Assembly (NCBI RefSeq): GCF_001677475.2
Contig: NZ_CP015229.1
Direction: 5' to 3' (one strand)
DNA: 64,000 bases
Source: Escherichia coli
GTDB taxonomy: Bacteria; Pseudomonadota; Gammaproteobacteria; Enterobacterales; Enterobacteriaceae
The notes below the pieces were generated by a model that saw only the letters and a program-made list of their open reading frames with translations, had not been told where the DNA came from and made no database searches. A program made the translations under genes and the position numbers. Position 1 is the first letter of the stretch. The number at the start of each line of letters is the position of its first letter. This document shows positions 25,517-51,960 of this stretch, in pieces.

Positions 25517-25612
25517 ACTAAGCATACATAACTGTTTTTAAACAAATTTATTCCGCATCAACAATCTACCAACTAAATTAAAACATTTCCTTATTTTTAA
25601 AGAACGGATAAC
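25517..25612 (-). promoter_or_regulatory. CRISPR array 1 leader (AT-rich) between cas2 stop and first repeat
   Basis: AT-rich 96 nt; contains ACAATCTACCAAC about 42 nt from the first repeat, a motif also present in the array 2 leader. Confidence 0.7.
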
Positions 25613-25906
25613 TTATTGATTATCAACAGGAAGAAAAGAAACCAAACGCAACCCATCCAAATCCACCGGAATACGTCTATTTTCACCCCAGGTCTGAAAT
25701 TCAAAACCTGACTCGGTATTGGTCGCCCAAGCCATCACTACATTTCCGCAACCTGCCAGTTGAGAGATTTGCTGCCAGATCATCTCCCGAATACGTTTGG
25801 ATGTATCTCCGACATACACACCGGCACGCACTTCCAATAGCCAGATAGCGAGCCGTCCACGTAAACGTGGAGGAACATTTTCCGTTACAACTACGATCAT
25901 ACTCAT
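25613..25906 (-). CDS. cas2: CRISPR adaptation endoribonuclease Cas2
   Basis: 97 aa, [33 protein letters not shown]… (I-E Cas2); ATGA overlap with cas1 stop. Confidence 0.93.
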
Positions 25907-26826
25907 CCGCCGCGTCCTCGATGACCGCTATCGCCCAACGTTTCAGGTTCGGGGATGGCTGGCGGTAACATATCCGGCGCGGGTTGTGGTGGTTCAATTT
26001 CACCTGCGGCAAGCACTTCCTCAATTAACGGAATTAATTTGCCCGTTAACTTAGAGCTACGGAAAATATCGCGACAAGCCAACCTGACTTCTTTATCAGG
26101 TTCTGCGGGTTGCCTCGCCGCTATTTCAAATGCCTTTGGTACAACCGAATCAAATTTAATGATATCGGCTATGTCGTAAACAAATGAAAGCGGTTTGCCA
26201 CTATGGATAAAACCAATAGCGGGCGCATATCCCGCAGCTAATACTGCCGCTTCAGAAATACCGTACAGGCATGATGTGGCAGCACTGATGCAGCGATTGA
26301 CAACATCGCCTTTTTCCCAGTCTTTAGGATCGTATTTGCGACCATTCCATTTCACACCATATTGTTTCGCCAGTAATGCATAGGTCTGGCGAACGCGGGA
26401 TCCCTCAATTCCCCGTAGCTGCTCCACTGAACGGCGAGCTGGCGGTGGCTCACGAAAACGTAATTCATACATTTTGCGCACCACCTTCAGGCGTAGATCT
26501 TCCGTTAAAGCCAGCATTGCCTGGTAGAGTAACTTATCAGCACGCGCCCCACCGGGTTGTCCGGAAGAGTAGACGCGAACACCCGCTTCACCGACCCAGA
26601 CCAGTAGCGTCCCCACCGTGGCGGCCAGATGGACTGCCGCGTGGGAAACTCTTGTTCCCGGTTCGAGCATAATGCAGGCGACCGATCCCACTGGAATATG
26701 CGTGCGGATCCCTGTTTTGTCGATCAGCACGAAAGCGCCGTCCAGTACGTCGATTTGACCGTACTGGAGGAAGATCATGGAAGTGCGATCTTTTAATGGG
26801 ATCGGGCTCAGCGGTACAAACCTCAC
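25903..26826 (-). CDS. cas1: CRISPR integrase Cas1 (type I-E)
   Basis: Cas1 core (…[39 protein letters not shown]…). Start set at GTG 26826 overlapping the cas6e stop (GTGA), by similarity to the recalled K-12 N-terminus; the ORF-track TTG at 26862 is an alternative. Confidence 0.9.
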
Positions 26827-27473
26827 GCCTCTGCTCCGGGTTTGATCAGCATCAGACCACAACCGAACGCCCGGCTTTTGCCATACCCCTGACTGAGACG
26901 TTGCAGAAATAACCCAGGATCGGTGACCGTAAGCATCCCCGTATAATCCACGCTACTGAACTGGATCAGTTGCCGGGAGTTTTCCCGCCGCAGTTGCTGT
27001 TGTCGGTAGGCATCAACCGAAGTATCCAGCAGTGTAAAACCGCTTCTCTCCCCCTGCGCTGCCAGCCAGTTCAGCGCAGCCTGTTGTTGATGCAACCAGA
27101 CATCACTTCCTTCCACCGGCCCCCTCACCTGCCGTTTCGCCTCCATCAGCAAGTCGTGGCGTTTGCCCGCTTTACAAATTGTTGGATTCGCCCGCAGGTT
27201 GAAACAAAGGGATTGTCCGGTACGCAACTCTGGCGCAAATGGTCGGCATTCGATGGTGAAAATATCACTTTCCGCCGGGCGTTCCTGCGACAGGACAAAA
27301 AAGCGAAACGCCCCCTGGAGTTCTTCCCGACGATAAAGAAATTGCCTTTCTTTGCCGCCAGGAAAAAGATCCCACAGCCACTGATGCATTACATATTCAC
27401 CGCGATCCACCAAATGCAGCAACTGCGCAGGCGAAAGCTGGCCGGTATGTAATGTTATTCTTGAGAGGTACAT
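26823..27473 (-). CDS. cas6e: crRNA endoribonuclease Cas6e (CasE)
   Basis: Start at ATG 27473 (MYLSRITLH…) preceded by AAGGAGGA; 216 aa; Gly-rich C-terminal segment (GYGKSRAFGCGLM). Strongly diverged from K-12 CasE as recalled. Confidence 0.9.
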   Translation of the reverse strand: MYLSRITLHTGQLSPAQLLHLVDRGEYVMHQWLWDLFPGGKERQFLYRREELQGAFRFFVLSQERPAESDIFTIECRPFAPELRTGQSLCFNLRANPTICKAGKRHDLLMEAKRQVRGPVEGSDVWLHQQQAALNWLAAQGERSGFTLLDTSVDAYRQQQLRRENSRQLIQFSSVDYTGMLTVTDPGLFLQRLSQGYGKSRAFGCGLMLIKPGAEA

Positions 27474-28201
27474 GGTTCCTCCTTGCTGAGCCACGGCCCC
27501 TGATTGATGGTGCGTTCCCCAAACAGCCACTGCTGACGATTTAAAGGAACATCCCGGCGACGTAATATTTTGCTCGCGACCAGGCCGTCGTGTTCCCCTT
27601 CCCACCAGCATTCATCCTGAAGTTTCGGGAGTGAGACTTTCAGTTCGCGGAAACTATCCTGATACTGTTGGTATGCGTTACGTAAGACATCAGACGCGTT
27701 GCCTTCGAGCAGTAACGGCGCAAGTGGTAACGCCAGCGGATGACTTTTTCGCCCCAGATAAAGCGGAAAAACCGGATGACGTAAACCGTCCTGCAACTGT
27801 TCAAGGCTGTAAGGCGCATCGGGGGTTGTTGCCACCGCCACCATCCACCAGGCATCGGTGTAGTAGTCGCGCCGGGAGATAATCGCGCTCAGAAGATCAG
27901 GGGCGCTCAACTCTTCGCGACGGCTGAAATAACGCGCTTTACGCACCTCTTTTGGCATCTGGACCGTGTGATAATCCCGTGCCCAGCGCGGGTTACGGCT
28001 GGCGCAAACCACCAGTGAATAGTGGCGGTTAAACGCGTTTAATCGTTCGGTATCATCACGCCGAATCCCTACCCCGGCAGCCAGCAGCCCCAGCAATGCT
28101 GAGCGCGAAGGCAGTTCATGGGTATGACGCACTTCGCCGGGGGCATCGACGCCCCAGGATGCCATTGGCCCATGAAGCTGAAAAATCAAATATTGGCTCA
28201 T
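27455..28201 (-). CDS. cas5: Cascade subunit Cas5e (CasD)
   Basis: 248 aa; N-terminus MSQYLIFQLHGPMASWG parallels K-12 CasD (MRSYLILRLAGPMQAWG); 19-nt overlap with cas6e start. Confidence 0.9.
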   Translation of the reverse strand: MSQYLIFQLHGPMASWGVDAPGEVRHTHELPSRSALLGLLAAGVGIRRDDTERLNAFNRHYSLVVCASRNPRWARDYHTVQMPKEVRKARYFSRREELSAPDLLSAIISRRDYYTDAWWMVAVATTPDAPYSLEQLQDGLRHPVFPLYLGRKSHPLALPLAPLLLEGNASDVLRNAYQQYQDSFRELKVSLPKLQDECWWEGEHDGLVASKILRRRDVPLNRQQWLFGERTINQGPWLSKEEPCTSQE

Positions 28202-28211
28202 TAGCCGCCCC

Positions 28212-50919: not shown

Positions 50920-50926
50920 ATGAGGT

Positions 50927-50952
50927 AGGCCGGGCGGAAAACTGCCCGGCCT
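50927..50952 (+). terminator. GC-rich hairpin after ygcE (no U-tract)
   Basis: AGGCCGGGC-ggaaaact-GCCCGGCCT, 9-bp stem, 8 nt after the ygcE stop. Confidence 0.4.
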
Positions 50953-50964
50953 GAACATACCTAA

Positions 50965-51786
50965 ATGGTTATCCCCGCTAACGCGGGGAACTCACTGAAA
51001 ACACCGGCGAGATCGTATTTTTTGCCGGTTTATCCCCGCTCGCGCGGGGAACTCTACCGGAAGGCAGGCACATTAGATCAGGTGATCGGTTTATCCCCGC
51101 TCGCGCGGGGAACTCCAGTGAGCGGAAGAAGAATGACTAACAGAGAGCGGTTTATCCCCGCTCGCGCGGGGAACTCCCCAGCCACAACAGCCACGCGTCG
51201 CGCTGTTCCGGTTTATCCCCGCTCGCGCGGGGAACTCGGAAACCGCCCCGGCGGTGGTTGGCTGTTTGCCGGTTTATCCCCGCTCGCGCGGGGAACTCTT
51301 TGCGCCGGAAATAGGAATCGTATTCGGTCTCGGTTTATCCCCGCTCGCGCGGGGAACTCTTATGCATCTCATCAAGCTTGTCGCCAAACGACGGTTTATC
51401 CCCGCTCGCGCGGGGAACTCTTAAATCGCGCTGGAAAAAAATGGTTTTTGCGCGGTTTATCCCCGCTCGCGCGGGGAACTCACACCCCGTTGCAATAAAT
51501 GGTCTGGGGGCTGCGGTTTATCCCCGCTCGCGCGGGGAACTCCAAACGCTTCTTCGTAGGCAGCACTGTAGGCCCGGTTTATCCCCGCTCGCGCGGGGAA
51601 CTCGGTGAAAAGATGAGTGCATACTGGTTTGTTTTCGGTTTATCCCCGCTCGCGCGGGGAACTCTCTTTTCCCGCTAATCACGACCAGATCCTGTCCGGT
51701 TTATCCCCGCTCGCGCGGGGAACTCGTAAAACCTCCTCGCGCCCACAATCGCAGCGGCGGTTTATCCCCGCTCGCGCGGGGAACTC
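50965..51786 (-). CRISPR. CRISPR array 2 (type I-E): 13 identical 29-nt repeats plus 1 degenerate terminal repeat, 13 spacers of 32 nt
   Basis: Repeat CGGTTTATCCCCGCTCGCGCGGGGAACTC recurs at 51026 + 61k for k=0..12. Degenerate distal repeat (GGTTATCCCCGCTAACGCGGGGAACTC) at 50966-50993. Leader on the queE side. Confidence 0.97.
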
Positions 51787-51960
51787 TCTAAACATAACCT
51801 ATTATTAATTAATGATTTTTTAAGCCAGTCACAATCTACCAACTTTACAGGATCACACAAACAACACATCTATTATGTTAAAGAGCACTTAATCCATTGA
51901 TTGAAAAGGTAAATATTTAAAATAACTCTATACAAACTAAAATCTACCAAACTCCGACGT
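51787..51960 (-). promoter_or_regulatory. CRISPR array 2 leader (AT-rich)
   Basis: AT-rich; contains CACAATCTACCAAC about 44 nt from the first repeat, shared with the array 1 leader. The outer boundary is approximate. Confidence 0.6.

Follow-up and report, generated by a model that had tools for sequence, protein, structure and literature searches.

The closest described counterpart of the two leaders analysed here is the CRISPR1 leader of Escherichia coli K-12, the source of all the functional evidence on the motif treated below, in a version with the core GTGG. In this leader IHF occupies positions -9 to -35, and the bend that it causes brings elements at -50 to -55 to Cas1-Cas2; a Cas1-Cas2 site lies at -1 to -4 (reviewed in PMC10011333). 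Mutation of the element CBS2 (-46 to -57), or of GTGG alone at -50 to -53, abolishes both acquisition in vivo and integration in vitro in K-12, and the motif is needed in a purified integration reaction that contains no RNA polymerase (PMC5224486). Mutating -34 to -45 or -58 to -69 of the same leader does not abolish acquisition/integration, and mutation of CBS2 affects IHF binding only slightly and bending not at all (PMC5224486). In a summary of the type I-E structure, the IHF-bent leader puts an upstream motif that lies some 50 bp from the repeat against Cas1 (bioRxiv 2023.05.26.542337). CBS2 or IAS (integrase anchoring site; -50 to -53) is also referred to as the upstream recognition motif or the upstream binding element.

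The window, that is, the whole 64-kb stretch of DNA analysed, is E. coli chromosome with a non-K-12 variant of the type I-E cas genes and with both CRISPR1 and CRISPR2 (Table 1). Array 1 corresponds to the CRISPR locus annotated beside cas2e in E. coli; its repeat reads GTGTTCCCCGCGCCAGCGGGGATAAACCG on the transcribed - strand, with the leader-proximal copy at 25488-25516. Array 2 is syntenic with CRISPR2 of K-12; its repeat reads GAGTTCCCCGCGCGAGCGGGGATAAACCG on the - strand, and a degenerate terminal repeat lies at 50965-50993. The leader-proximal repeats thus end at 25516 and 51786. The genes cas2e and cas1e stand directly upstream of leader 1. The K-12 Cas1 chain matched by the Cas1 of the window is the one found in the integration-complex entries 5VVJ and 5WFE, and the window protein is 86% identical to a database cluster with the K-12-type E. 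coli Cas1; it is the non-catalytic lobe of Cas1 that has been reported in contact with the upstream motif. In an Rfam scan of 24500-52500 the only hit was sok (34838-34995), and neither leader matched an RNA family.

Table 1. Features of the two CRISPR loci and their leaders (window coordinates; negative numbers are leader positions counted from the first repeat)
Feature	Position	Strand	Details
CRISPR array 1 (CRISPR1, iap side)	24878..25516	-	11 identical 29-nt repeats
Leader 1 junction block	25517..25521	-	-1..-5; TTAGT on leader strand; matches conserved TTAGA/T by the integration site
Leader 1 proximal IHF region, putative	25525..25551	-	-9..-35; core -21..-9 = AAACAGTTATGTA; by homology
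Leader 1 upstream motif	25561..25573	-	GTTGGTAGATTGT on leader strand, -57..-45; core GGTAG 25566-25570 (-54..-50)
Leader 1 distal perfect IHF consensus	25609..25621	-	AATCAATAAGTTA, -105..-93; straddles cas2 stop codon; function putative
cas2e (97 aa)	25613..25906	-	stop TAA at 25613-25615; identical DNA annotated cas2e in E. coli genomes
Leader 1 distal second motif core	25659..25669	-	CCGGTGGATTT; in cas2 codons Pro-Val-Asp-Leu
cas1e (integrase)	25903..26823	-	best PDB match K-12 Cas1, E 5e-174
CRISPR array 2 (CRISPR2, ygcE-queE side)	51026..51786	-	13 identical repeats; K-12 synteny
Leader 2 proximal IHF region, putative	51795..51821	-	-9..-35; core -21..-9 = TAATAATAGGTTA; by homology
Leader 2 upstream motif	51831..51843	-	GTTGGTAGATTGT on leader strand, -57..-45; core GGTAG 51836-51840
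Leader 2 distal perfect IHF consensus	51890..51902	-	AATCAATGGATTA, -116..-104
Leader 2 distal second copy	51939..51951	-	TTTGGTAGATTTT, -165..-153; in decayed cas2 3' remnant

The earlier note on this DNA had described a motif common to both leaders, at the same distance from the first repeat and in otherwise diverged AT-rich sequence, and this description holds. The 13-mer ACAATCTACCAAC has exactly two exact matches in the 64-kb window, at 25561-25573 and 51831-51843 (+ strand), and each is separated from its leader-proximal repeat by exactly 44 nt, which places both copies at leader positions -45 to -57. The spacing first given as 42-44 nt stemmed from longer strings (CAAC... and CAC...) and narrows to 44 nt for the 13-mer in both leaders; the coordinates given for array 2 were correct, those for array 1 were off by one, CAACAATCTACCAAC lying at 25559-25573 and not at 25558-25572. 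When up to two mismatches to ACAATCTACCAAC are allowed, the window contains four matches against about one expected. A two-mismatch match at 6695-6707, considered as a further copy of the motif, looks like chance, with about one expected.

Outside these 13 identical bases the leaders have drifted apart: they agree at 22 of the 44 positions from -44 to -1 and at 19 of 46 aligned columns spanning leader-1 positions -92 to -58, so that the flanks are 41-50% identical, and leader 2 carries an 11-nt insertion immediately upstream of the motif. The last 100 nt are 75% A+T in leader 1 and 71% in leader 2. Over 130 nt the longest identical run in the same register is 14 nt long, and it is the motif itself. 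At a background identity of about 50% a 13/13 block would arise by chance with a probability of roughly 1e-4, and the block is therefore more than the drift of two homologous leaders.

At the same -45 to -57, K-12 has ACAACCCACCAAC in CRISPR1 and ACAATCTACCAAC in CRISPR2, the latter identical to the window, and both window copies align gap-free to K-12 GTTGGTGGGTTGT. The likeness to the K-12 IAS/CBS2 (Yoganand et al. 2017, NAR, PMC5224486) extends to its location, its core at -50 to -53, the 44-nt distance, the flanking tetrads (GTTG...TTGT), the order of motif, putative IHF site and repeat, and the neighbouring genes cas1e and cas2e. As a finding, the 13-mer common to both leaders is already known; it is the published CBS2 or integrase anchoring site. 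By analogy with K-12 it is very probably the upstream leader motif of Escherichia-type I-E arrays, on which Cas1-Cas2 would dock after IHF bending. The copies in the window differ from the K-12 CRISPR1 element in having GTAG instead of GTGG as the core and A instead of G at -49, whereas the functional data concern the GTGG form. The GTAG variant is the form present in K-12's own CRISPR2 leader, and we infer that it works in the window as GTGG does in K-12 CRISPR1.

For a wider view we surveyed 65 leaders, set in register at the leader-repeat junction; they represent more than 60 species, among them members of Enterobacterales, Aeromonas, Pseudomonas, Vibrio and Halomonas. The survey leaves out two loci whose first repeat was evidently mis-called (L021 and L033) and about 12 loci without a recognisable array in the fetched flank. 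GGTRG occurs at exactly -54 to -50 in 60 of the 65, and the core is kept at the same position as far off as Pseudomonas, Vibrio, Halomonas and Lampropedia. The information content is 2.0-2.3 bits at -54/-53; apart from the motif, conservation peaks at the IHF core (-22 to -9, with CA at -18/-17, and -10/-9) and, in 54 non-redundant leaders, at the junction (-5 to -1, with -2). Either purine occurs naturally at -51 (GGTAG in 36 leaders, GGTGG in 19), and the commoner natural docking core is GTAG, not the experimentally tested GTGG. Five further strains of E. coli retain the motif and its 44-nt gap, with changes in the intervening sequence. The alignment of leaders across strains that had been proposed as a check on the spacing thus finds it conserved, both in these strains and in the 60 of 65 surveyed leaders.

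Homology between the two leaders is clear over more than 200 nt and takes in the cas2 3' remnant of leader 2, and the identity of the 13-mer might have no function at all, being left over from common descent of paralogous leaders or from gene conversion between the loci. The two leaders share a second 13/13 island, CTGGGGTGAAAAT (25679-25691 and 51965-51977), that other species have not kept, and long identical islands can therefore persist here without cross-species constraint. Descent would account for all 13 identical bases within this lineage, but not for a core retained at the same position in the leaders of Pseudomonas, Vibrio, Halomonas and Lampropedia, nor for the experimental requirement for its K-12 homologue (PMC5224486). 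We give a functionless identity almost no credence, and the cross-species conservation largely refutes it.

A site at a fixed distance invites the question of which protein reads it. The earlier note had suggested a protein-binding site that positions spacer integration, with IHF as a candidate. The first half of this proposal agrees with the K-12 mutants and with the conservation in 60 of 65 leaders; the second half is not supported for this motif, as the protein would be Cas1-Cas2 and not IHF, which is mapped to -9 to -35 (PMC10011333), between the motif and the repeat, with the K-12 CBS2 mutants bending normally. The idea that the motif is itself an IHF site, from which IHF positions integration, has some observations in its favor. 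Adaptation in I-E systems requires IHF as a host factor (PMC5224486, PMC10011333), the + strand of leader 1 reads AATCTACCAACTA, with two mismatches to the IHF consensus WATCAANNNNTTR (three, also on the + strand, for the leader 2 motif), and across species 33 of the 65 leaders have three or fewer mismatches to this consensus in the motif register, compared with 6.5% of all registers. The motif also resembles known IHF sites (WATCAANNNNTTR; the I-E leader at -9 to -35, phage lambda attP) in being A/T-rich and held at a fixed distance, and IHF takes part in the same integration mechanism. However, mutation of the block in K-12 hardly affects IHF binding and leaves bending unaffected (PMC5224486), the field assigns one IHF to each E. 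coli leader plus a Cas1 contact at the upstream motif (bioRxiv 2023.05.26.542337), and the K-12 CRISPR1 version, AACCCACCAACCT, is fully functional with five mismatches to the IHF consensus.

The functional IHF site of K-12 has three mismatches itself, and consensus scoring alone is therefore insufficient as an argument against IHF contact at the motif. The pattern of conservation differs as well: in the motif register only 5% of the 65 leaders carry the consensus A at position 5, and 31-58% agree with the TTR arm. What is conserved there is CYACC/GGTRG and not ATCAA...TTR; the positions read by IHF (CAA, TTR) are not the conserved ones. The true IHF register is probably -21 to -9, where, as a sequence match, 63 of 65 leaders have one to three mismatches to WATCAANNNNTTR and where the C, the A and the T-R of the arm are matched in 92-100% of leaders. 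In this register leader 1 has three mismatches, the same as the functional K-12 site, and is preceded by an A/T tract, and leader 2 has two mismatches and is preceded by an AAAAAA tract. Taken with the K-12 mutants, this makes an IHF site at the motif highly unlikely.

Transcription of the array offers another possible reason for conservation: the block could be kept as the start region of the pre-crRNA, either instead of or in addition to a role in integration. An extended -10-like element, TGTTTTAAT, lies in leader 1 at -69 to -61 (+ strand 25577-25585), with TGTTACATT in the same place in K-12, and the start expected from such an element falls at about -54, on the GG within the motif; the CRISPR-1 start is reported about 50 nt upstream of the first repeat (PMC10011333). 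The CRISPR-2 start is reported about 95 nt upstream (PMC10011333), yet the leader 2 motif stays at -45 to -57, and the 11-nt insertion directly upstream of it displaces any -10 element. Simple promoter and terminator scans of both leaders returned nothing on the relevant strand; with no - strand promoter match in either leader, what speaks for a promoter comes down to the extended -10-like element, which was read by eye. The one promoter-like match, on the + strand at 51916-51943, is within chance expectation, and a reading of the leaders as terminators was dropped after the scan found none on the relevant strand. Moreover, across more than 60 species conservation goes with distance from the repeat, and the motif is required in the purified integration reaction without RNA polymerase (PMC5224486). 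We therefore hold a transcriptional reason for the conservation of the block to be very improbable. In CRISPR1 the motif does coincide with the predicted pre-crRNA start, and something other than integration could account for part of its conservation at that locus.

Docking by Cas1-Cas2, the reading that we prefer, suggests the following sequence of events. IHF would bind between the motif and the repeat, at -9 to -35, and force the leader into a sharp U-turn; with the centre of the bend about midway, the DNA around -50 to -55 would fold back beside the leader-repeat junction. Once the Cas1-Cas2 integrase is loaded with a spacer, one of its Cas1 subunits would touch the folded-back motif, and this extra contact would cause the first repeat to be preferred over the other repeats for the first strand transfer. 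If the Cas1 contact selects the first repeat in this way, the motif would need a fixed distance from the junction. The requirement for acquisition, the independence from IHF binding and the Cas1 contact are carried over from the K-12 literature and would apply to the leaders of the window by homology.

Farther upstream, both leaders contain a perfect IHF consensus together with a second GGTRGATTT, 46 nt upstream of that consensus. The distal module of leader 1 lies within the last codons of cas2, with the IHF consensus over Asn-Gln-stop and the motif copy over Pro-Val-Asp. The silent positions of these codons are fixed across 19 non-redundant species: the Pro codon of the distal motif is CCG in 19 of 19, while the other invariant Pro of cas2 is never CCG, and the Val codon is only GTA or GTG, while GTT, GTG and GTC all occur at the other invariant Val. 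The cas2 of leader 2 is dead, a remnant with a broken frame, yet both distal elements survive and the 37 nt between them have decayed to 35% identity; the second motif copy is separated from the proximal motif by 108 nt and stands 46 nt upstream of the leader 2 distal IHF consensus. Depending on the lineage, the proximal motif and the distal IHF site are 39, 51 or 62 nt apart, in steps of 11-12 nt that approximate one helical turn. We considered whether the distal copy of leader 2 is a relic of an older leader-repeat junction and rejected this: there is no repeat-like sequence at the expected 54 nt, and the copy aligns to cas2 codons.

Leaders with several IHF sites have been described in type I-F, I-C and 'some I-E' systems (Santiago-Frangos et al. 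2021, summarised in bioRxiv 2023.05.26.542337). The distal pair found here, a perfect IHF consensus with a second GGTRGATTT 100-165 nt upstream, resembles such leaders, but the same summary has E. coli I-E as a one-IHF system. A literature search for a distal IHF site in a CRISPR leader gave no match; Santiago-Frangos et al. 2021 was outside its reach. The codon usage and the survival of both elements in a decayed gene are compatible with the distal consensus and second motif core acting as a functional second bend-and-dock unit, which on sequence grounds we regard as possible though rather doubtful. If it were so, I-E leaders of the E. coli type would have two IHF sites, as type I-F leaders do, and would in part overlap cas2; the minimal '60-bp leader' of E. 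coli would fall short of the whole natural element, and cas2 would end in codons that double as leader DNA.

As for the arrays themselves, both have complete canonical leaders, with a junction block, a putative IHF site and a Cas1 docking motif at the right spacing, which argues that both CRISPR1 and CRISPR2 of this strain may be competent to take up new spacers.

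Both CRISPR leaders in the window carry an identical 13-mer, ACAATCTACCAAC, which has exactly two perfect matches in the 64,000 nt. As the leader-proximal repeats end at 25516 (array 1) and 51786 (array 2), a gap of exactly 44 nt separates each copy from its array, which puts both at leader positions -45 to -57, counted upstream of the leader-repeat junction. The earlier note had described a shared motif at equal distance from the first repeat in both leaders, and this holds; its array-1 coordinates were one base too low, all others standing as stated. The two leaders agree at 13/13 motif positions, at 22/44 positions from -44 to -1 and in 19/46 aligned columns from -92 to -58, and the motif is their longest identical run in the same register. 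Drift of two homologous sequences does not account for the shared motif.

Features of the window bearing on the two leaders and their surroundings
Feature	Position	Strand	Remarks
Array 1 (CRISPR1, iap side)	24878-25516	- (transcribed)	11 identical 29-nt repeats
Motif, leader 1	25561-25573		
-10-like element, leader 1	25577-25585	-	TGTTTTAAT, -69 to -61
TCTTTAA, leader 1	25597-25603	-	
Distal IHF consensus, leader 1	25609-25621		AATCAATAAGTTA, perfect; across cas2 stop codon
cas2	25613-25906	-	adjoins leader 1
Second motif copy, leader 1	25659-25669		CCGGTGGATTT, inside cas2
Stretch common with cas2 remnant	25679-25691		CTGGGGTGAAAAT
cas1	25903-26823	-	after cas2
Lone repeat-like sequence	31755-31781	-	GGGCTTATCCCCGCTGACGCGGGGAAC; cas3-casA intergenic, 26 nt past cas3 stop
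sok antitoxin RNA	34838-34995	-	Rfam RF01794, 113 bits
Array 2 (CRISPR2, ygcE-queE side)	51026-51786	- (transcribed)	13 identical repeats; degenerate terminal repeat at 50965-50993
Motif, leader 2	51831-51843		
TCTTTAA, leader 2	51878-51884	-	
Distal IHF consensus, leader 2	51890-51902		AATCAATGGATTA, perfect
cas2 3' remnant	~51903-51990	-	decayed, frame-broken
Second motif copy, leader 2	51939-51951		TTTGGTAGATTTT
Stretch common with cas2	51965-51977		CTGGGGTGAAAAT

The window is an E. coli chromosome segment with the gene order of K-12 (iap, cas, cysHIJ, ygcE, queE). Many E. coli genomes match it at 100% identity over the 204 bases just right of array 1 and label this stretch as the cas2e end. 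The plus-strand repeats (CGGTTTATCCCCGC...) are the reverse complement of the crRNA repeat, so the minus strand is transcribed and the leaders lie to the right of both arrays. The cas genes are a non-K-12 E. coli variant: the leader with the cas2 end is ~71% identical to K-12, and Cas1 shares 86% identity with the K-12-type cluster and matches the K-12 Cas1 chains of the integration-complex entries 5VVJ and 5WFE with an E-value of 5e-174. All 13 array 2 repeats have C for G on the plus strand (GCTCGCGCGGGG versus the usual GCTGGCGCGGGG), altering the crRNA hairpin loop; in the other E. coli strains examined, the repeats carry the usual G or differ by other single variants. The lone repeat-like sequence, oriented opposite to both arrays, could be a stray integration relic or could serve as a hairpin or terminator downstream of cas3. 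Between cas3 and cysH, the RF01794 match indicates a hok/sok-type locus.

In K-12 MG1655, the CRISPR2 leader has the identical ACAATCTACCAAC and the CRISPR1 leader has ACAACCCACCAAC, likewise 44 nt from the first repeat. Read on the leader strand, the CRISPR1 block is GTTG-GTGG-GTTG-T, and its tetrads are exactly the CBS2(L), CBS2(C) and CBS2(R) mutated by Yoganand et al. (PMC5224486). With -46 to -57 scrambled, the K-12 leader no longer supported acquisition of spacers in vivo or integration in vitro, whereas scrambling -34 to -45 or -58 to -69 abolished neither; the sole essential tetrad within CBS2 is the central GTGG (-50 to -53), which the authors named the integrase anchoring site (PMC5224486). 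On every feature that sequence can test, the motif is a member of this known element class, and all we add is the GTAG variant and a wider conservation count. We infer that GTAG is equivalent to the tested GTGG, since it is the commoner natural form and is present in K-12's own CRISPR2.

For the conservation count we took 80 loci with Cas1e relatives, one per species genome, located the first repeat downstream of cas2 and stacked the leaders gap-free on the leader-repeat junction. The 65 usable leaders include four from E. coli and span Salmonella, Klebsiella, Pectobacterium, Aeromonas, Pseudomonas, Vibrio, Halomonas, Lampropedia and others; GGTR starts at exactly -54 in 60 of them, as GGTAG in 36 and GGTGG in 19. 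Pure common descent of the two leaders accounts for 13/13 identical bases in this lineage but leaves retention of the core across bacterial orders unexplained. The motif and its 44-nt distance are also preserved in five more E. coli strains, O157:H7 and Nissle 1917 among them, with substitutions in the sequence between motif and repeat. The spacing, whose loss across strains would by the earlier note have refuted its proposal, is thus conserved.

Information content in 54 non-redundant leaders forms three separate peaks: TTGGTRGA at -56 to -49 (2.0-2.3 bits at -54/-53), AAAWCAAT...TA at -22 to -15 plus -10/-9 (C at -18 in 94%, A at -17 in 100%), and the junction block TTAGA at -5 to -1. The middle peak is, judged by its sequence, the IHF core: register -21 to -9 has one to three mismatches to WATCAANNNNTTR in 63/65 leaders, against a background of 6.5% of all registers with three or fewer. 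IHF had also been put forward as the binder of the motif itself, and the plus strand of leader 1, AATCTACCAACTA, has just two mismatches to the IHF consensus. However, conservation does not fall on the positions by which an IHF site is defined: 5% of leaders have the consensus A at position 5 and 31-58% match the TTR arm, and the K-12 CRISPR1 version, with five mismatches by our count, is nevertheless functional. The K-12 data count directly against an IHF site here, as the CBS2 mutant leader retains both IHF binding and IHF bending (PMC5224486).

The motif might instead be kept as the pre-crRNA transcription start. The extended -10-like element of leader 1 (K-12 CRISPR1 has TGTTACATT there) places the predicted CRISPR1 start on the motif GG, which fits a start 'about 50 nt upstream' (PMC10011333). 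Yet the CRISPR-2 start is given as ~95 nt upstream (PMC10011333), an 11-nt insertion lies immediately upstream of the motif in leader 2, and integration by purified components, with no RNA polymerase present, still requires the motif (PMC5224486). Start-site overlap would be no more than a secondary role in CRISPR1. By prediction, integration motif and transcript start overlap in leader 1, not in leader 2.

Further upstream, a second GGTRGATTT lies exactly 46 nt beyond a distal IHF consensus in both leaders, and this pair recurs at the same distance in 28 surveyed leaders. The distance from proximal motif to distal IHF site is 39, 51 or 62 nt by lineage, in steps of about one helical turn. Silent cas2 positions under the pair are frozen in 19 non-redundant cas2 genes from 19 species: the Pro there is CCG in 19/19 (another invariant cas2 Pro, 0/19), the Val is GTA or GTG only (another invariant Val is GTT, GTG or GTC), and Glu-Asn-Gln is almost invariably encoded by GAA AAT CAA. 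The pattern looks like selection at the DNA level within cas2. Alignment identifies the sequence upstream of leader 2 as a cas2 3' end remnant that keeps both distal elements, the stretch between them being 35% identical to leader 1; the CRISPR2 locus thus descends from a duplicated cas2-leader-array unit. The remnant, which also occurs in K-12, shares CTGGGGTGAAAAT with cas2 and has a 5-nt insertion. The pair may correspond to the 'some I-E leaders with multiple IHF sites' credited to Santiago-Frangos et al. 2021 in a passage of bioRxiv 2023.05.26.542337. As a 60-bp leader is reported to be the segment essential for acquisition (PMC5224486), this distal module would at best act as an enhancer. 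Another conserved block, (GA)TCTTTAA, is present in most species of the survey, and its distance from the repeat varies (-60 to -90); it holds the cas2 stop codon in Pseudomonas-type loci and is non-coding in Enterobacterales.

While the sequences and their conservation are observed here, an acquisition requirement, independence from IHF binding and Cas1 contact would extend to these leaders by analogy with the K-12 literature. A 2023 review places IHF at -9 to -35, its bend bringing elements at -50 to -55 against leader-bound Cas1-Cas2 (PMC10011333), and a passage of the Wiedenheft laboratory preprint (bioRxiv 2023.05.26.542337) describes an I-E integration complex in which an upstream motif ~50 bp from the repeat meets Cas1 via the IHF-bent leader. 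Counted from the repeat, the order is most likely junction block, IHF site, upstream motif, with the IHF site about halfway from the first to the last. IHF would make a U-turn with its centre near -26 and so set position -52 beside the junction, and this geometry would explain the fixed distance of the motif. Read by a Cas1 subunit of the loaded integrase, the motif would offer a second Cas1 contact available to the first repeat alone among the repeats.
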